Below are positions 7,798 to 54,427 of a DNA stretch of 64,000 bases, one piece after another. Positions within the stretch are counted from its first letter, which is position 1; every line of letters begins with the position of its first letter. The notes under the pieces are model-generated. The model did no database searches, was not told where the DNA came from, and worked only from the letters and a program-made list of their open reading frames with translations. The translations under genes and the position numbers were made by a program. Source of the DNA: Candidatus Magasanikbacteria bacterium CG10_big_fil_rev_8_21_14_0_10_36_32 (GTDB lineage: Bacteria > Patescibacteriota > Patescibacteriia > Magasanikbacterales > GWA2-37-8); NCBI GenBank assembly GCA_002778465.1, contig PFBV01000003.1:87736-151735 (forward strand), written 5' to 3'.

Positions 7798-7880
7798 GCG
7801 GACGTGGCGGAACTTGGTATACGCGTACGTCTCAGAAGCGTATGGAGCAATCCTTGAGGGTTCAAGTCCCTCCGTCCGCA
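7798..7880 (+). tRNA. tRNA-Leu (anticodon CAG) with a long variable arm.
   Basis: Acceptor stem gcggacg/cgtccgc, anticodon loop ctCAGaa, long variable arm, T-arm gaggg-ttcaagt-ccctc, discriminator A. 83 nt in total. Confidence 0.8.
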
Positions 7881-8028
7881 CAATTATTTTTTTAAATTAT
7901 TAAAAATCCAATAATTTAAAATTAAATTTATTTATTTAATTTATCTTCAATTAACAATTTCACAAATTGTTTTTTATCCCGCCACAACGGGATTCCGCTT
8001 AACGCGGCAACTAATCATTATTTAATTT

Positions 8029-10030: not shown

Positions 10031-10060
10031 ATACCCTCGCAAAAGCGAGGGTATTTTTTA
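10031..10060. terminator. Bidirectional rho-independent terminator (for pspC on the + strand and rnpB on the - strand).
   Basis: ataccctcgc-aaaa-gcgagggtat hairpin flanked by T-runs on both strands. Confidence 0.7.
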
Positions 10061-10061
10061 T

Positions 10062-10434
10062 TCATAGCTATAAGCCGAATTCTGTTCCCCCCGAAAGGGT
10101 GATAATCATTTCTCTAGTTGCATCATTACTGACACAATCATCAGCGAGCGAACTTTTTATCCCGACGTGAAGTCGGGACTCTGCTCTTGCACGCGAGTAA
10201 GGATTTTGCCGTTTCACCTTCAATCTTCTTTTCCCCCGATCAAAGTTAAGCTGTTATTCCTGATTAAACAAGAACATGGGATTTAGCTTTCCTTAGCCTT
10301 TCGGCTTTGGACGTTTCTGTTCGCACCTCTTGGATCGCTCCAGACGGGCGTTACCCGCTACTTTTGCCACAAATGAGCGGCTGCGTGTTCGGACTTTCCT
10401 CCCTAATAAATTAGGACGATTATCCACTATGAAC
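10062..10434 (-). ncRNA. rnpB: RNase P RNA (bacterial type A-like).
   Basis: The minus-strand read contains GGAGGAAAGTCCGAACAC (P4 5' strand) ... GGTAACGCCCG ... ACAGAAACG ... ACAGAATTCGGCTTATAGC (P4 3' strand ACAGAAnnCGGCTTA). The P1 helix pairs gttcatag with ctatgaa. A perfect promoter places the TSS at about 10434. Confidence 0.85.
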
Positions 10435-10440
10435 AGGTCT

Positions 10441-10539: not shown

Positions 10540-11607
10540 ATGAAATCCGTTCTTTACAAAAAAATCAAAGAATGCAAGGGATGTTTATCTCATCTTCGAA
10601 TGTCCGAAGAAATAGCCACGCGCAAAAAAATAGACTCGCCTACCATGGTATTACTTGATGAATCACCTTTTGCTCAGGATCGCGACAGAATTCTAAAAAG
10701 TCAAGCTCTGCGTCGGCTGAGCGGTATTTGTCATGTTTTTCCATTACCCGACAATATCTATATCCGCAACCGGCTGACCCACACACTGGAAGTAGAAAGT
10801 GTCGCGGTCAAAATAGCTCATCTGCTCGGCATTAACGAAAAAATTTGCAGCGCGGCCGCTCTTGGCCACGATATCGGCCATACTCCATTCGGTCATGTCG
10901 GCGAAGATTTTATAACTGACATAACCGGACGTAAATTCCGGCACGAAGTTTTTTCAGTCATCGTCGCTCAGCAAGTGGAACGGCGTGGTCATGGTCTGAA
11001 TCTGACCAAACAAACGCTGGAAGGAATGTTTTATCACTCACGCGGCGGCGGAAAACTTTATTTGTCCAAAGTGCCAGAATATGATGTAGTGATGCTGGCC
11101 GACAAGCTGGCATACCTACTTATTTCTGACATTGAAGATATGTTCCGCTACGGCTATTTGCAATGCAAAAACTTTCCCGAATTGTCTAGAGTACTAAATT
11201 CGTTCGGCGCAAATCCGACTCAACGCATCAACACCTGTGTAGCACATCTTTGCTTGGAATCAGCAACTAAGGGTTATGTTTCTTTTTCTGATTCATCGGT
11301 CGCCCAACGGTTTGACGAACTCAAAGACTTGGCACATCTTGCTTACAAACGAATCAATCGCATTGATCGCAAACTTTGCCCGAAACACTTGGAAAGCGCC
11401 TATACCAATATCGCTCTGACCGTCAAAGATGTAGATCCGGCAATAGTTTTGGCATTGATGACCGACCAAGATGTAATAAAACTTTCACAAACCACTACCA
11501 ACACAAAAACGATAATCAAAACTATGCATTCTTTGCCTGTTTGGGAAATTATACAACCAATTCGCGGCAAGCGTATTGACTTCACCAAACCCAATCTGGA
11601 TTGGTAA
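10540..11607 (+). CDS. dGTP triphosphohydrolase-like HD-domain phosphohydrolase.
   Basis: LTHTLEVESVAVKIAHLLGI...GHDIGHTPFGH is the dGTPase-family HD motif. 355 aa. Confidence 0.75.
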   Translation: MKSVLYKKIKECKGCLSHLRMSEEIATRKKIDSPTMVLLDESPFAQDRDRILKSQALRRLSGICHVFPLPDNIYIRNRLTHTLEVESVAVKIAHLLGINEKICSAAALGHDIGHTPFGHVGEDFITDITGRKFRHEVFSVIVAQQVERRGHGLNLTKQTLEGMFYHSRGGGKLYLSKVPEYDVVMLADKLAYLLISDIEDMFRYGYLQCKNFPELSRVLNSFGANPTQRINTCVAHLCLESATKGYVSFSDSSVAQRFDELKDLAHLAYKRINRIDRKLCPKHLESAYTNIALTVKDVDPAIVLALMTDQDVIKLSQTTTNTKTIIKTMHSLPVWEIIQPIRGKRIDFTKPNLDW

Positions 11608-22596: not shown

Positions 22597-23937
22597 TTAT
22601 TTTGACGATTTTGTCAAACATCCTTTTAATAACCATAAATCCGGCTGAGTAATTTTTACTTTAACTATTTTATTGATTAAATCCGGCTGGCCAAAAAATT
22701 GAACCAATTTCATTTCACGTGAATTGCCGGAACAAATACCTTTGTCGCATTTTTCAACCATTACTTCAACAATTTTATTCAAATATTTTTGATTTTTTCT
22801 AAAAGTTATTTTTTCCATCAATTCTTGCAATTCGTGCCAGCGACGCTTTTTTTCAATTTGTGAAACACTATCTTTAAAATCTAAAACACCTGCTTTGGCG
22901 GCTTTAACGGCTGCGGTACCGCTGCGCTCGGAATAAATCGCCGTATAAGCAATGTCAAAATCACATTTTTTATAAAAATCAAGAGTATTCTTAAATTGTT
23001 TTTTTGTTTCACCGCAAAAACCAACTATTAAATCCGTACCTAAAGCAATATCCGGCTTGGCAACGCGAATTTTTTTAATCAATTCAATATATTGCTCTCG
23101 TGTATATTTACGATTCATTTTTCTTAAAATATTATTATCCCCACTTTGTGCTGGCAAATGTAAATAATTCAACTGATTAGATAACTTTAATGCCTTAATT
23201 TGCGCAAAATTAAAATACTGTGGATCAGAAGCAGTAAAATTAATGCGCTCAATTTTTTTTATTTGATTTAATTCCCATAACAAAGCGGCAAAATCATCTT
23301 TTGTTTTAAACGGATTTTTTAAGTTGAATTTTTTTCCGTCTGGTGCAATATAATGATTTACCACTTGTCCAAGTAAAGTTATTTCTTTACAGCCGTTTTT
23401 TGCTAATTTCTTAACCTCCTTTAAAATATCTTTGACCGAACGATTACGTTCCCGCCCACGGGAATACGGCACAACGCAATAAGCACAAAAATTATTACAG
23501 CCTGTTTGTATTGTTACAAAAGCCTGTGCTGATTTTTTTTGTAATGGAGAAATTGATAAATAATCTTTTTGTATTTTAAAATTCAATTCACCCAACCATT
23601 TGGGTAACACCGGTAATTCATCAATGGCAAACCATAAATCTACTCCTTTTATTTTTCTTTTAATTATACCGTCTTCATCTCGTCCGGGCATACATCCTGT
23701 TACGGCAATAATCAAATTTTTATTTTTTTGACGATACCGTTGCCAATTTTTTATTAAACCAAAAGTTTTATCCTCAGAAGCTTGCCGCACACTACAAGTG
23801 TTTAAAATAATAATATCAGCCTGAGTCGGATGTTCGGTCATCTTATAATTTAAAGAATTTAAAAGACCGGCAATCCTTTCTGAATCGCTTTTATTCATCT
23901 GACAACCCAAAGTAACAAGGTGATATTTTTTAATCAT
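22597..23937 (-). CDS. miaB: tRNA-i6A37 methylthiotransferase (radical SAM MTTase).
   Basis: YHLVTLGCQMNKSDSERIAG (MTTase N-terminal domain) and the CNNFCAYCVVP radical SAM CxxxCxxC. It is adjacent to miaA. Promoter TTGTCA-17-TAGAAT at about 23954-23982. Confidence 0.85.
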   Translation of the reverse strand: MIKKYHLVTLGCQMNKSDSERIAGLLNSLNYKMTEHPTQADIIILNTCSVRQASEDKTFGLIKNWQRYRQKNKNLIIAVTGCMPGRDEDGIIKRKIKGVDLWFAIDELPVLPKWLGELNFKIQKDYLSISPLQKKSAQAFVTIQTGCNNFCAYCVVPYSRGRERNRSVKDILKEVKKLAKNGCKEITLLGQVVNHYIAPDGKKFNLKNPFKTKDDFAALLWELNQIKKIERINFTASDPQYFNFAQIKALKLSNQLNYLHLPAQSGDNNILRKMNRKYTREQYIELIKKIRVAKPDIALGTDLIVGFCGETKKQFKNTLDFYKKCDFDIAYTAIYSERSGTAAVKAAKAGVLDFKDSVSQIEKKRRWHELQELMEKITFRKNQKYLNKIVEVMVEKCDKGICSGNSREMKLVQFFGQPDLINKIVKVKITQPDLWLLKGCLTKSSK

Positions 23938-24048
23938 AGTTTACGTTTCATTCTAATCATTTTTTGTTAATTTGACAACCCCCCTTATCAATTATAAAAG
24001 AAAAACCCTCAGCGGTTGCTGAGGGTCTAAAGGGCGAGAAAAGAACAA

Positions 24049-24711
24049 TTACGGCTGCTTGATACAGTCATAAACAGCGCAGAAGGCTTTAATGTCCAAC
24101 TTAGTCAAAAAAGGCGAGGTCTGACCGGCAACATCTTTCGGCGAACCTTCCGGATACATCACTGGCGGTTCATCGTTTGAATTCAAAAAATTAATATGCT
24201 GAAGCGCAATCCAGTGACCGAATTCGTGAACGACTACGTAATACAGAAAATGGAGATATTCAGCTTGTGTTCTGCTTTCATCATCAACCGAAGGCGCGAT
24301 GCTGAAATCAAAGAGTAGAATATCTTCCTGCACGCCAAAGCCGAGAATGGAAGCATCCGTACCTTCATACTTTCCTGTAATGTAGGTTGAATAGAGGTAG
24401 TCGTACCACTCGTCCCGCTCATCCACGTTGTAGACGACATTGTTGCCGTCATCCAGATTTTCCATCGGGGAAAAACCGTCCTTGGCGTAGCGTCCTCGGT
24501 AGATGATGATGTCGTAACCGAGATATTCACGACCAATCTGATTCCATTCCTCCGCCGCGTTCAGAATAGCTTGCTCTTGCGCTTCGGAAAAAGTATCGTC
24601 AATCATGAAATCTTTTGGAAGATCTTCAGCCAACATCTGACAAGAGGACAGGCTGATAAGGAGGCAGGCGGAAACGAACAGAATTACCAGACGCGAGAAA
24701 AACCGATCCAT
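24049..24711 (-). CDS. Lipoprotein zinc metalloprotease (metzincin-like HExxHxxxxxH).
   Basis: Signal peptide with lipobox LISLSSC and active site VVVHEFGHWIALQH. It lies in a GC-rich island. Confidence 0.65.
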   Translation of the reverse strand: MDRFFSRLVILFVSACLLISLSSCQMLAEDLPKDFMIDDTFSEAQEQAILNAAEEWNQIGREYLGYDIIIYRGRYAKDGFSPMENLDDGNNVVYNVDERDEWYDYLYSTYITGKYEGTDASILGFGVQEDILLFDFSIAPSVDDESRTQAEYLHFLYYVVVHEFGHWIALQHINFLNSNDEPPVMYPEGSPKDVAGQTSPFLTKLDIKAFCAVYDCIKQP

Positions 24712-25277
24712 ATCTGACCTCCTTTCAATGCTTCATCGTACATTGGACGAGCGAAATCACCGTAATGCCTAAACGTAGTAATCGGCGGTGGCATAAAAAC
24801 TCTCCAATCCAATGTCATAGACACTGTCTTGGTCAGCTTTACTTCAGCACCTACTCCGAAGACTATGTCAATCTTCCGCTCCAAACGGGCAACGGAAACA
24901 GGCACAGTGAGGTTGCCGAACATCCCGAAATCGCCGATGTGCAGACGCACCCGATCGGTATGGACAATATCCAAACCGAGAGCGACTCCGACTCCGTAGG
25001 GAAATACCGCGCTGACTTCCAGAACGAGGGGGGTGTACTTGGGCAGGCGGAAACGGACGGCGACATGACCGGTGAAAGAAGCGGTGCTGGAAGCGCCGTA
25101 CAGACTATCATACGCTTCCATCCACGGCGCGCCTCCGAGGCCGAGATTGAACTGGCACTCGAAGGTCTCCTGACCGGACACTTCGCTTTCAGAACCATCA
25201 TCTGCTGTTGCGACGGTGGCTAGCGCCATTCCGAAGCAAACGACCGCAACCATCAAAAACACCTTATACATCTTCAT
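24684..25277 (-). CDS. Outer-membrane-protein-like small beta-barrel (OmpW/OmpA-like porin family).
   Basis: Signal peptide MKMYKVFLMVAVVCFGMALATVATA, alternating hydrophobic beta-strand pattern, C-terminal aromatic residue (…WIGFSRVW) typical of OMP beta-barrels. It overlaps the downstream metzincin gene by 28 nt. A perfect TTGACA-17-TATAAT promoter on the minus strand is at about 25408-25436. Confidence 0.55.
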   Translation of the reverse strand: MKMYKVFLMVAVVCFGMALATVATADDGSESEVSGQETFECQFNLGLGGAPWMEAYDSLYGASSTASFTGHVAVRFRLPKYTPLVLEVSAVFPYGVGVALGLDIVHTDRVRLHIGDFGMFGNLTVPVSVARLERKIDIVFGVGAEVKLTKTVSMTLDWRVFMPPPITTFRHYGDFARPMYDEALKGGQIWIGFSRVW

Positions 25278-25486
25278 TTTTTAACTCCTTCTGTGTGTAC
25301 CTATTCATTTTAATGAACAGGTTTTGGTTTTCAAAGAACAGATTATTGTAAGCGAAACTTGAAATTACGGCGTTGCTCCTATAAAGAAAACGTAGTTTTC
25401 CTTTATTCGCAACTTTTAATTATAGCACATTTTGATGGTTTTGTCAATAGATTAATTTGGCTAAAATAAGCTAAATTTAATATTTT

Positions 25487-25515
25487 AAAAAGCCCAAATT
25501 TGGGCTTTTTAAAAT
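25487..25515. terminator. Bidirectional terminator.
   Basis: aaaaagcccaaatttgggcttttt. Confidence 0.6.
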
Positions 25516-25546
25516 TTACTTAATCTGTTTATTTTTTAATCTATGT

Positions 25547-27325
25547 TCATTTTCTTTCTTTAATTTCCTCTAAAACTCTATCTGTGAAATCGGATTGCGA
25601 TATTTTTTCCTGTTTTTCCTGCCCTCTGATTCTAATCATCCAATCTTCACCGGCTAACTCTTTATCACCCACTACCACAATGTAAGGAATTTTTTTTGCC
25701 ACCGCTTTACGAACACGATTACCCAAAGTCTCGTTAGCCGCATCCATTTCCACCCGGATACCGGCATTAAGCATATTTTTATTTATTTTCTCCGCACCAA
25801 CCGCATGTTTTTCTGAAACCGGAATTAACATAACTTGAACCGGTGACAACCAAACCGGAAACGCGCCGGCATAATGTTCAATCAAAATGCCAAAAAATCT
25901 TTCCATAGAACCATAGATTACTCTATGTATCATTACGGGGCGCTTCTCCTGTCCACTATCATCAACGTAAGTTAAATTAAATCTCTCGGGTAAATTCATA
26001 TCCAATTGAATTGTGCCGCATTGCCATGTTCGTCCAATAGCATCCTGAATATGAAAATCAATCTTCGGACCATAAAATGCTCCATCACCCTCATTAATTT
26101 TATATTCTTTACCAAATTCATCTAAGGCGCCTTTCAAACCAGCCGTCGCCAGTTCCCACGCTTCATCCGTACCAATTGATTTTTTCGGCCGAGTGGATAA
26201 TTCCAGCCGATAAGTTAAGCCAAATTTAGTATAAATTTCCTCAGCCAAACGAATCACGCCAATAATTTCTTCTTTAATCTGATCAGTTCGCATAAAAATA
26301 TGGGCATCATCTTGATGAAAACAACGTACTCTAAACAAACCGGATAAAGTGCCTGACAATTCATGCCTATGAACTAAACCGATTTCTCCCCAACGCAGCG
26401 GTAATTCGCGATAGGAATGAATCTCTTCTTTATAAACCAACATACCGCCCGGACAATTCATTGGCTTAATCGCATATTCCATTTCATCAATTTTAGTTTC
26501 ATACATATTTTCCCTATAATTTTCCCAATGTCCGGATGTCTCCCAAAGTTTGCGATTAAGCATAATCGGAGTTTTAACTTCGTCATATCCCGCTTGAACA
26601 TGCGTCTTGTGCCAATAATTCAACAACTCATTCCAAATTATCATTCCTTTGGGCTTAAAAAAAGCAAAACCCGGCCCCTCATCATGAAAACTGAATAATT
26701 CCAATTCCTTGCCCAATTTCCTATGATCTCTTTTCTCCGCTTCAGCCAACATTTTCAGATATTCATCCAATTCGGCTTGCGATTCAAAACAAACACCGTA
26801 AATTCTTTGCAGTTGCGGATTATCACTTTTTCCACGCCAATAAGCGCCGGCTAATTTTGTTAATTTAAAAGCGCCGATTTCTTGAACTGATTCTAAATGC
26901 GGCCCACGACACAAATCAACAAACTCTCCAGTGCGGTAAATTGTCACCTTGTCCAATGAACCAGCTAAATCTTTCATTTCTTCTTCTTCTTTTTCTTTAA
27001 CCTTGGTCGTGCCTTTCTTTTTTAAATCTTTCAACAATTCAACTTTGTAGTCTTGTCCAATTTTTTTGAAAAACTTAACTGCTTCATCTAATTTCATTTC
27101 TTCACATTCAAATTTCACACCTTTTTTCATTAATCCTTTGGCTCTAGCTTCTATTTTTGCCAAATCCGCTTCGCCTATCGGTTTAGAAAAATCTATATCA
27201 TAGTAAAAACCATTTTCCACCGTTGGTCCAATTCCAAATTTTGCATCAGGATATAATTCCTGAACCGCCGCCGCCACCAAATGTGCGCAACTATGCCGCA
27301 TCATTTCTATGTTTACCTTAGACAT
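25547..27325 (-). CDS. thrS: Threonyl-tRNA synthetase.
   Basis: 592 aa with TGS/editing and class II core regions. The HxxxH...CAH editing motif (HSCAHLVAAA) and motifs 2 and 3 are recognisable. Confidence 0.9.
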   Translation of the reverse strand: MSKVNIEMMRHSCAHLVAAAVQELYPDAKFGIGPTVENGFYYDIDFSKPIGEADLAKIEARAKGLMKKGVKFECEEMKLDEAVKFFKKIGQDYKVELLKDLKKKGTTKVKEKEEEEMKDLAGSLDKVTIYRTGEFVDLCRGPHLESVQEIGAFKLTKLAGAYWRGKSDNPQLQRIYGVCFESQAELDEYLKMLAEAEKRDHRKLGKELELFSFHDEGPGFAFFKPKGMIIWNELLNYWHKTHVQAGYDEVKTPIMLNRKLWETSGHWENYRENMYETKIDEMEYAIKPMNCPGGMLVYKEEIHSYRELPLRWGEIGLVHRHELSGTLSGLFRVRCFHQDDAHIFMRTDQIKEEIIGVIRLAEEIYTKFGLTYRLELSTRPKKSIGTDEAWELATAGLKGALDEFGKEYKINEGDGAFYGPKIDFHIQDAIGRTWQCGTIQLDMNLPERFNLTYVDDSGQEKRPVMIHRVIYGSMERFFGILIEHYAGAFPVWLSPVQVMLIPVSEKHAVGAEKINKNMLNAGIRVEMDAANETLGNRVRKAVAKKIPYIVVVGDKELAGEDWMIRIRGQEKQEKISQSDFTDRVLEEIKERK

Positions 27326-38866: not shown

Positions 38867-38940
38867 GTCAGGGTAGCTCAGCTGGTTAGAGCACTGGATT
38901 CATAACCCGGAGGTCGGGAGTTCAAGTCTCCCCCCTGACA
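38867..38940 (+). tRNA. tRNA-Met (anticodon CAU; it could alternatively be a lysidine-modified tRNA-Ile2).
   Basis: Acceptor gtcaggg/ccctgac, D-arm gctc-agctggtta-gagc, anticodon loop ttCATaa, T-arm gggag-ttcaagt-ctccc. It ends 2 nt before the tsaD ATG. Confidence 0.8.
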
Positions 38941-38942
38941 CT

Positions 38943-52052: not shown

Positions 52053-52952
52053 ATGTATAGCGAAATTGCTTCCAATAAACGCAAGTCAATCTTGCTAGCT
52101 TCTTTATTTATTGCCGTAATAATTTTACTCGGTTGGATTTTTGATCAAGTTTACGTCGGTGGAAAAAGTTATACTGGAATAATTATCGCTATTTTTTTGT
52201 CTTTTGGTCTAACCGCCATTTCCTATTTTCAAGGCGACAAAATAGCCCTGCTGACCACCGGTGCCAAATTGCTGGAGCATGATGAAAATCAAAGAGTTTA
52301 TCATTTAGTTGAAAATCTTTGCATTGCTTCCGGCACACCGATACCAAAGATATATCTAATAGAAGATCCGGCCATTAATGCCTTTGCCACTGGAAGAAAA
52401 CCGGAAATAGCATCTATTGCTTTAACTCGCGGAGCGATTGAAAAATTGACCGACAATGAACTGGAAGGCGTCATCGCCCACGAGCTTTCGCATATTAAAA
52501 ATTACGACATCCGCTTTATGATGCTGGTAGCAGTAATGGTGGGGTCAATTTCCATTTTAGCCAATATTCTTTTACGTTCGGGCGGACTGACGCGCGGAAA
52601 AGGCGGAAATGACCGCGAGGGCGGCAGTCAGCTTTTTGCTATTTTAATGATTGTCGGAATTGTCCTGGCGATACTTTCACCGCTTATCGCTGAACTGATT
52701 AAATTGGCTATTTCCCGCCGACGCGAATTTCTAGCTGACGCTTCCGGTGCCTTATTAACTCGTTATCCCGAAGGTCTGGCCCGGGCGCTGGAAAAAATAT
52801 CAGCCGAAGCCAAACCGATGCGCACAGCTTCTTCAGCTACAGCTCATCTTTTCATCGCCTCCCCTTTCAGCGCCAAATCATTTTCCAAATTATTTTCAAC
52901 ACATCCTCCGGTTGAAGAACGCATCAAAAAATTACGGACGATGGGAGCGTAA
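52053..52952 (+). CDS. htpX: Zinc metalloprotease HtpX (M48).
   Basis: HELSHIKNYD (HExxH), four TM helices, and the common lemA-htpX pairing. Confidence 0.85.
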   Translation: MYSEIASNKRKSILLASLFIAVIILLGWIFDQVYVGGKSYTGIIIAIFLSFGLTAISYFQGDKIALLTTGAKLLEHDENQRVYHLVENLCIASGTPIPKIYLIEDPAINAFATGRKPEIASIALTRGAIEKLTDNELEGVIAHELSHIKNYDIRFMMLVAVMVGSISILANILLRSGGLTRGKGGNDREGGSQLFAILMIVGIVLAILSPLIAELIKLAISRRREFLADASGALLTRYPEGLARALEKISAEAKPMRTASSATAHLFIASPFSAKSFSKLFSTHPPVEERIKKLRTMGA

Positions 52953-53926: not shown

Positions 53927-54427
53927 ATGCTACGCTTGGTTGGACAAATCAATACCACTCATATCACCGGATTACATTCTATGGTTTGGGGTAATTTTGA
54001 TAAATTGACCGGCAATGTATCTGGACTACGGGGCAATGTTTCCAATATTTGGGGACGGATTCATCCGGAAATTGAAGGCTTTGTTAGTAATATTTTTGGA
54101 AATATTACCGGTTTATCTGGGATAATTTCCGGAATAAACGGCAACATTAATAATATATCAGGCAAAGTCGGCGGTTTATACGGTTGTATCACTGCACTCT
54201 GCGGAGACGTCAGCCGGATTCGTGGCACCATTCACCCTTCCCTCTGCGGAGACGTCAGCCGAATGCGAGGTGACATTTCCGGATTGCGCGGACATATTTT
54301 TCTACTCCATGGAACTGCCAGCGGCATTGAAGGTGATTGTACCGGACAAAAAGGCAACATTGAAGAAATCATAACCAAAGCCGCATTGGCTCGTATCGCT
54401 GAAATCCGTAAACCCTTTGACGCTTAA
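53927..54427 (+). CDS. Heptapeptide-repeat protein (166 aa) with about 18 tandem G-x-[IV]-[ST]-x-[ILM]-x units.
   Basis: Good SD (aaaaggag) 8 nt upstream. The repeats read GNVSGLR GNVSNIW GRIHPEIE GFVSNIF GNITGLS GIISGIN GNINNIS GKVGGLY GCITALC GDVSRIR GTIHPSLC GDVSRMR GDISGLR GHIFLLH GTASGIE GDCTGQK. The DNA-level near-repeat ctgcggagacgtcagccg appears at 54198 and 54243. Terminator 54440-54475. Confidence 0.6.
   Translation: MLRLVGQINTTHITGLHSMVWGNFDKLTGNVSGLRGNVSNIWGRIHPEIEGFVSNIFGNITGLSGIISGINGNINNISGKVGGLYGCITALCGDVSRIRGTIHPSLCGDVSRMRGDISGLRGHIFLLHGTASGIEGDCTGQKGNIEEIITKAALARIAEIRKPFDA

Follow-up and report, generated by a model that had tools for sequence, protein, structure and literature searches.

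In a 64,000-nucleotide (nt) stretch of contig PFBV01000003.1 from Candidatus Magasanikbacteria bacterium CG10_big_fil_rev_8_21_14_0_10_36_32 (this whole stretch is called the window below), two overlapping genes, which we designate A and B, lie between thrS and miaB and are read on the minus strand in the order thrS-A-B-miaB (Table 1). Gene A is predicted to encode a secreted, eight-stranded beta-barrel of the outer-membrane protein (OMP) type, and gene B a lipoprotein with a matrixin-like metzincin active site. The pair recurs as a coupled cassette, both in relatives and in distant bacteria.

The A-B unit and its predicted products

The product of A had been portrayed, in a preliminary description of this DNA, as a secreted protein of 197 residues with amphipathic strands and an aromatic C-terminus (...FSRVW), and the open reading frame (ORF), the signal peptide and the alternation of strand faces were all found. 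The type I signal peptide covers residues 1-25, with cleavage predicted between ATA and DD (MKMYKVFLMVAVVCFGMALATVATA followed by DD); it is conserved across homologues and leaves a mature protein of 172 aa. AlphaFold2 predicted a closed 8-stranded barrel for A (pLDDT 66.8, pTM 0.61), as had been anticipated, with strands of 9-13 residues and a helix in the last long loop. This model has turns of 2-4 residues on one side and long loops opposite them; its best Foldseek matches were OmpA, OmpX, NspA, Ail, and OmpW, and TtoA is likewise among its closest structural matches.

In an alignment of 88 sequences, every strand of A alternates between a hydrophobic, variable face and a polar, Gly-rich one. 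With the faces assigned by sequence pattern and not by coordinates, their mean Kyte-Doolittle hydropathy in the window protein is +3.06 and -1.15, respectively. The polar face is the better conserved of the two (2.41 vs 1.75 bits, p = 3e-4); E87, D137, G141, G143, R159, G118, R75, and H113 are among the residues conserved on it. This is the pattern predicted for a lipid-embedded barrel with a packed polar lumen, and a soluble barrel would be expected to show the opposite. The C-terminal residue is aromatic (F, W, or Y) in 67 of the 88 core members, W in the window, and an aromatic residue occurs within the last three positions in 83 of them. The most conserved segments of A are the long loops L3 (PVSVxRxxR) and L4 (YGDFARPxYxEAxKGG). 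Weak matches to PF13505 (OMP_b-brl; best E-value 1e-3) were obtained for 14 of 53 relatives, and one relative from Magasanikbacteria bears the UniRef label 'Outer membrane protein beta-barrel domain-containing protein'. Copies from the Candidate Phyla Radiation (CPR), to which the host of the window belongs, retain or even surpass the hydrophobic exterior of the family. Gene A is absent from the NCBI protein set and appears only in JGI and ENA gene calls.

For gene B, the earlier assignment as a lipoprotein with an LSSC lipobox and an HEFGHWIALQH metzincin site was upheld by its similarity to matrixins (M10), with invariant zinc ligands and Met-turn. In all 12 homologues, C24, H162, E163, H166, H172, M185, and a C-terminal Cys pair (FCxVYDC) are invariant; the window protein has Ala where HExxHxxGxxH has Gly, which most homologues carry, and the residue that follows the third His varies. 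The 12 homologues all match Pfam Peptidase_M10 (PF00413; best E-value 7e-10), and a profile of the B family matches the catalytic domains of the matrix metalloproteinases (MMP) MMP-7, -12, -8, -16, -1, -3, and -14 with E-values of about 3e-5 to 4e-4, with an aligned region that begins at the zinc motif, takes in the Met-turn and ends at helix C. The cysteine-switch prodomain motif (PRCGxPD) was looked for in B and is not present, and the distance from Cys24 to H162, about 137 residues, is the size of a lone catalytic domain. A PDB sequence search with the small B alignment gave no useful match. B is thus predicted to be a lipid-anchored, prodomain-less, M10-like protease with an intact active site. 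The corresponding NCBI protein, COU29_01225 (195 aa), starts at the internal Met26 and so comes without signal peptide and lipobox; the form of 220 aa is preferred here because its MDR... N-terminus and the 28-nt overlap with A are conserved in 12 homologues.

The two genes are coupled in translation. The start codon of B falls in the W190 region of A, the Shine-Dalgarno sequence of B is embedded in A codons (Table 1), and both signals fall within the stretch of A that encodes the conserved motif ...KGGQ(I/L)W.... Loci with relatives are designated below by L or P numbers. AAAGGAGG or GGGAGG stands at the equal position in eight of nine tabulated loci, and also in L014. The overlap of 28 nt is found in every core-family locus with B, which makes 15 of 16 core-family loci (L001, L003, L005-L007, L010-L014, and P0046 were itemised). 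Among the core-family loci for which gene context was retrieved, A is followed by B at L001, L003, L004, L005, L006, L007-L009, L010-L014, and the P0046 locus; L004 covers just the last 28 residues of A, and L002 stops 58 residues into B. The only exception is L016 (201-776), where A stands alone with no B downstream; its A has ISGQ instead of KGGQ, so that the embedded Shine-Dalgarno motif is lost, which fits the KGGQ motif being conserved for translational coupling. In addition, the A-rich codons for K-G-G are kept even where the GC content at third codon positions (GC3) of the host is near 0.85, and this speaks for selection at the nucleotide level. Coupling of this kind would favour production of A and B in matched (1:1) amounts. 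In L011 (40-1859), on a metagenome contig of 57.5% GC, the cassette is present twice in tandem (A-B-A...).

Table 1. Features of the A-B unit and its surroundings (positions in the window).
Feature	Position	Strand	Remarks
miaB	22597-23937	-	downstream of the A-B unit
Intrinsic-terminator-like hairpin and T-run after B	24003..24028	-	downstream boundary; 11 pairs, 6 of them G-C, then TTCTTTTATA
Gene B, predicted lipoprotein, matrixin-like (M10) metzincin	24049..24711	-	220 aa; lipobox L21-S-S-C24
Met-turn methionine of B	24157..24159	-	M185 in PVMYP; aligns with AVMYP of MMP-7
Zinc motif of B	24196..24228	-	HEFGHWIALQH (H162, E163, H166, H172)
Other-frame ORF	24234-24536	-	
Overlap of A end and B start	24684..24711	-	28 nt; translational coupling
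Gene A, predicted secreted 8-stranded OMP-type barrel	24684..25277	-	197 aa; C-terminus ...WIGFSRVW
Shine-Dalgarno sequence of B	24718..24725	-	AAAGGAGG; inside the Lys185-Gly186-Gly187 codons of A, 6 nt before the ATG of B
Other-frame ORF	24765-25223	+	
Other-frame ORF	24829-24999	+	
Other-frame ORF	24863-25201	-	
5' leader	25278..25418	-	about 140 nt; ends in the Shine-Dalgarno sequence of A, GAAGGAG
Sigma-70-type promoter	25419..25447	-	TTGACA-17-TATAAT, extended -10 (TGTGCTATAAT); 12/12 matches, TG present
Terminator-like hairpin after thrS	25482..25515	-	upstream boundary; 15-pair stem, 4-nt loop
thrS	25547-27325	-	upstream of the A-B unit

The perfect TTGACA-17-TATAAT promoter reported earlier does exist, but the position given for it (25408-25436) was off by 11 nt, the true one being 25447..25419. 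Nor is it a new gain of the island, as had been proposed, since L002 and L003 have conserved the same block, TTGACAAAA...AAAATGTGCTAYAAT, ahead of their A genes. The leader of the window is about 85 nt longer than those of L002 and L003, and in it the promoter-proximal sequence recurs in degenerate form (...CGCTTACAATAATCTGTTCTTT...). An Rfam search of the leader gave nothing near any gathering score, and a riboswitch or other known RNA was therefore rejected. Hairpin terminators had been described on both sides and were seen at 25515..25482, with perfect 17-nt palindrome arms, and at 24028..24003. With its own predicted consensus promoter and terminator, A-B forms a self-contained transcription unit. 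A perfect direct repeat of 12 nt, TATTTTTTAATC, brackets this unit at 23924-23935 and 25530-25541, one copy lying within the first miaB codons and the other just past the thrS stop; it could be a chance occurrence in AT-rich DNA or the remnant of an insertion.

Composition, distribution and history of the cassette

That the region between miaB and thrS is a GC-rich island, as first noticed by eye, was borne out by calculation. The GC content of 24040-25300 is 48.9%, as against 35.0% in the rest of the window and 32.5% and 37.1% in the 2-kb flanks, and no other stretch of 1261 bp within the 64 kb is richer in GC (z = 4.6); positions 25021-25080, put at about 58% GC, are GC-rich indeed, with a measured value of 60%. 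The anomaly concerns GC3 as well, which is 0.58 in A and 0.52 in B, compared with a mean of 0.27 (standard deviation 0.05, maximum 0.42) in the other 40 ORFs, and the GC excess of the two genes sits in codon usage, beyond amino-acid content alone. The other-frame ORFs listed in Table 1, which had been called spurious, are long because A has almost no TTA, CTA, or TCA codons, and an antisense gene overlapping A was rejected because synonymous-codon shuffles yield comparable antisense ORF lengths. Mildly raised GC3 was also observed at 10540-11607, 52053-52952, and 53927-54427 (0.42, 0.39, and 0.39), in ORFs for an HD-domain protein, a Peptidase_M48 protein, and a product with no Pfam match.

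Such an abrupt change of composition at both ends could also come from an assembly chimera or a contaminating fragment, but we regard this as virtually out of the question: the thrS-A and B-miaB junctions turned up independently in several assemblies from Logan and NCBI, the boundaries match the promoter and terminators and not read-length breaks, and the contig of the window is 513 kb long.

The closest homologues, 52-77% identical, come from relatives of the same lineage (L001-L004) that carry the cassette in the same thrS-A-B-miaB slot, an outcome that the preliminary description had itself named as one that would refute it. Compared with the window, L001 shows 86% identity for miaB, 76% for A, and 63% for B; L002 shows 76% for thrS and 63% for A; and L003 shows 72% for miaB, 52% for A, and 43% for B, so that across these three loci the identities of A and B rank in the same order as those of the flanking genes. 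For A and B, the rate of synonymous substitution (dS) is 0.7-3, synonymous sites being near saturation, and the ratio of non-synonymous to synonymous rates (dN/dS) is 0.12-0.33. Both genes are under purifying selection, and these values indicate that they are long-time functional residents.

These results do not agree with the preliminary view of the region as a recent island, brought in from a diderm or a phage and not yet ameliorated, which we now consider very unlikely. The strong GC and GC3 anomaly would fit it, as would the direct repeat around the unit and the occurrence of a distant A-like subfamily on a phage-like contig of 304 kb. Against this stand the shared slot, the parallel divergence of the flanking genes, the high dS, and the conservation of the promoter in relatives; moreover, the 12-mer is A/T-rich and could be chance, and no integrase, tRNA, or mobility gene was found in or beside the island among the window ORFs and in the tRNA scan. 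A search of viral contigs for relatives of the A-B core family returned none, and a PHROG search of A and B gave no match. The case is a caution, since a strong GC3 anomaly had been read as a sign of recent arrival, although the cassette has resided there for so long that its synonymous sites are approaching saturation.

Single-protein, word-indexed searches yielded six relatives of A and four of B, whereas an exhaustive profile search gathered relatives of A that form 141 clusters at 50% identity, mostly 180-200 aa long and for the most part non-CPR-like in composition. A scan of genome contigs with a 12-sequence alignment gave two loci, and a metagenome scan three. In the high-GC hosts (L005, L010-L014; 58-68% GC), the GC3 of the cassette is 0.79-0.89 and equals that of the neighbouring genes; L005 is a metagenome-assembled genome of Vicinamibacterales (Acidobacteriota). 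Among CPR contigs, the cassette is found in three groups, namely the clade of the window (L001-L004), L006/P0014, and L007-L009/P0019. In these, its GC3 is about 0.44-0.71 irrespective of a host GC3 of 0.25-0.50, and the L006 cassette matches its host. The L007-L009 loci come from the Magasanikbacteria assembly GCA_001783185.1 and lie elsewhere than between thrS and miaB. In L006 (3070-4151), the cassette occupies the miaB/thrS slot but is inverted and accompanied by an extra ORF of 152 aa, which may reflect either an inversion or a second insertion. The L006 contig is titled 'uncultured Gammaproteobacteria' yet shares the order miaA-miaB-[cassette]-thrS...pilB, with proteins 47-66% identical, and its bin label is probably wrong.

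No conserved functional context was found among the flanking genes of the high-GC loci. The only recurring neighbour is a class-I S-adenosylmethionine (SAM) methyltransferase of about 190 aa, shortly downstream at L010 2182-2748 and L012 8147-8722. At the P0046 locus (JGI 3300071325), in a high-GARP (Gly, Ala, Arg, Pro) organism, the cassette adjoins seven tandem genes with MopE/C-type-lectin domains and genes for FG-GAP/TSP_3/GON proteins. The distant A-like subfamily (250-280 aa) occurs without B. Its member at L015 (6001-6807), of 268 aa with a Lys/Pro-rich N-terminal extension, has no metzincin alongside; it lies on the 304-kb contig, of 36% GC, near genes for RNR, PhoH, thymidine kinase, GIY-YIG, endonuclease VII, and DNA ligase, and this contig looks like a jumbo phage.

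Since the family is native in high-GC bacteria, including the Vicinamibacterales genome, a diderm origin is the best reading, and a high-GC diderm source followed by transfer into CPR is the most economical one, with a direction and an age that we infer. Of the horizontal origin proposed at the outset, from a diderm or a phage, the diderm part is thus retained, given the native composition in high-GC hosts, and the phage part is not. Horizontal gene transfer into Patescibacteria has been documented; most of it takes place within the phylum, with diderm phyla as occasional donors (PMC12455944).

Conversely, there may have been no transfer between phyla into CPR at all, the cassette being ancestral in Magasanikbacteria or having passed from CPR to diderms, and its GC-richness being kept by selection on, for example, codon choice, mRNA structure, or expression level. 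The GC3 of CPR copies, held in one range whatever the host, would be accounted for in this way, and so would the agreement between L006 and its host, the strong and conserved promoter, and the presence of the cassette in three CPR clades. Between the window and L001, moreover, dS is 0.72 for A and 1.5 for miaB, about half, which hints at constraint on synonymous sites. We nevertheless give this history little credence, because diderms are the only bacteria with a known assembly route for an OMP-type barrel with an aromatic C-terminal signal, the majority of the 141 clusters are non-CPR-like in composition, and the high-GC hosts carry the cassette at native composition, one of them with a tandem duplication. 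The cassette loci also differ among Magasanikbacteria, and the CPR clades are not grouped in the (weak) tree.

Envelope context and interpretation

The window otherwise has typical CPR content, with DUF4012 and DUF11 proteins, a type IV secretion system pilin-like protein, FtsH, PilB, and RNase P RNA. The last is of bacterial class A (114 bits) and lies at 10055-10435 on the minus strand; genes for tRNA-Leu(CAG) and tRNA-Met are at 7798-7881 and 38867-38941. No outer-membrane biogenesis gene was seen among the scanned ORFs of the 64 kb. Patescibacteria are treated as monoderm or as having no outer membrane (PMC8871954, PMC12102498, 10.1101/2021.05.31.446380), and the earlier suggestion that the host is probably monoderm accords with its placement among Candidatus Magasanikbacteria, in a phylum so regarded (PMC8871954, PMC12102498).

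Taken together, we consider it fairly probable that A-B is a conserved, coupled barrel-protease envelope cassette of diderm type, anciently acquired by an ancestor of Magasanikbacteria and vertically inherited since. The cassette would be native to high-GC diderms, including Acidobacteriota, and after horizontal transfer to this ancestor it would have been passed on between thrS and miaB under purifying selection. A would be exported by the Sec route as an outer-membrane-type barrel, and B, translated by coupling to A, would be lipid-anchored. The two may form a complex at the cell envelope, their presumed location in the CPR cell, in which the barrel could serve as a membrane-embedded dock or regulator of the protease, with the conserved loops L3 and L4, the latter helical, as the likely contact.

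Several points weigh against this reading. The AlphaFold2 model of A is moderately confident and derives from an alignment of six sequences, and the window protein matched no model in Pfam (E up to 1) or NCBIfam. The window B scores 18.9 bits against PF00413, below the gathering score of 24, and its AlphaFold2 model, made from four sequences, has a pLDDT of 37, which leaves sequence as the basis for assigning a matrixin fold. The physical complex of A and B is one that we infer. As to history, a taxonomic label is available for just one high-GC host, and GC3 is high in spite of near-saturated dS, a simple amelioration model fitting marginally. The neighbour-joining tree is weak and star-like and leaves the CPR clades ungrouped, so that one ancient transfer and several transfers are not distinguishable. 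Finally, as Patescibacteria are regarded as monoderm and without the barrel-assembly machinery (BAM), an outer-membrane location is not obviously available to A.

A further step, which we hold to be unlikely, would be that purifying selection has preserved in the CPR lineage a true transmembrane barrel of outer-membrane type, together with the surface protease to which it is coupled. If so, either Magasanikbacteria own an outer lipid layer that hosts beta-barrels, or the exported barrel inserts independently of BAM into another membrane. In the most attractive version of the latter, the barrel would enter the outer membrane of a diderm host, and barrel and protease would then act as an episymbiont device for attachment or for remodelling of the host surface. 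The persistent GC-rich synonymous sites would in that case reflect selection on the mRNA of the unit. A barrel that is truly membrane-embedded would bear on the structure of the CPR envelope and on how episymbionts engage diderm hosts.

Comparison with known systems

A resembles the small barrels of clan MBB, such as the OmpA transmembrane domain, OmpX/Ail/NspA, OmpW, and Thermus TtoA, in its signal peptide, its eight antiparallel amphipathic strands, its short turns at one end of the barrel and long loops at the opposite end, its polar, charged, Gly-rich lumen, and its C-terminal aromatic residue. Unlike these barrels, the window protein lacks a significant Pfam match, and 14 of 53 relatives match weakly; the long loops L3 and L4 of A show the highest conservation instead of the highest variability, and L4 holds a helix; and the gene is translationally coupled to a protease gene and is present in a phylum believed to be without an outer membrane.

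Likewise, B shares with matrixins and other M10 peptidases, including karilysin, the HExxHxx(G/A/S)xxH zinc motif, the VMYP Met-turn, and the helix-C pattern L-x-x-x-D-I-x-x-F-x-x-(V/L)-Y. It differs from classical matrixins by having no cysteine-switch prodomain, by its N-terminal lipid anchor and conserved C-terminal Cys pair (FCxVYDC), by the variable residue after the third His, and by a window sequence below the Pfam threshold.

The gene pair recalls the potempins of the KLIKK system of Tannerella forsythia, small beta-barrels of which some are eight-stranded and up-and-down (PMC9890683). There too, the gene for a small barrel directly precedes that of a secreted peptidase, one of these peptidases being MMP-like, and the two are co-expressed (PMC9890683); this likeness suggests, by analogy, a partner or regulator role for the barrel. 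A could accordingly be a soluble, secreted eight-stranded barrel that inhibits or chaperones the prodomain-less protease B, an alternative that we judge improbable. Co-transcription of potempins with peptidases including MMP-like karilysin (PMC9890683) speaks for it, as does the want of a cysteine switch in B, which would call for some control of latency; tight coupling favours 1:1 production, and if A were soluble, its presence in a monoderm would no longer be puzzling. However, the conserved strand face of A is polar and Gly-rich and the variable face strongly hydrophobic, the reverse of a soluble barrel; its C-terminal aromatic is conserved and its strands have 9-13 residues. When the chains of all PDB entries (2026 copy) were searched with a profile of the small A alignment, no barrel protein was matched, and the sole match, botrocetin, was set aside as a chance WIGxSxVW similarity.

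Potempins, moreover, are lipoprotein inhibitors of 98-132 aa with a soluble core, whereas A is a mature barrel of 172 aa with a hydrophobic exterior and a type I signal peptide, and the lipid anchor is here on the protease; no sequence similarity was found between the two systems. Gene order thus fits a potempin-type inhibitor, but the signal peptide and the hydrophobic variable face do not, and since the conservation pattern of A is opposite to that of potempins, this possibility is kept as a rival only. Should A rather control B, the pair would be a compact new protease-regulator module.

An integral barrel is likewise paired with a lipoprotein, genetically or physically, in LptD-LptE, SusC-SusD, and RcsF-OmpA. 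These systems differ in having far larger barrels or in lacking an overlapping two-gene arrangement for the pair, and to our knowledge none of them includes a metzincin. A fixed, translationally coupled pairing of barrel and metzincin was not found in the curated libraries or the literature searched. Each of the two superfamilies, small outer-membrane barrels and matrixin-like metzincins, is well known, and what is new is their fixed, coupled pairing, which spans distant phyla, including one generally held to have no outer membrane or barrel-assembly machinery.

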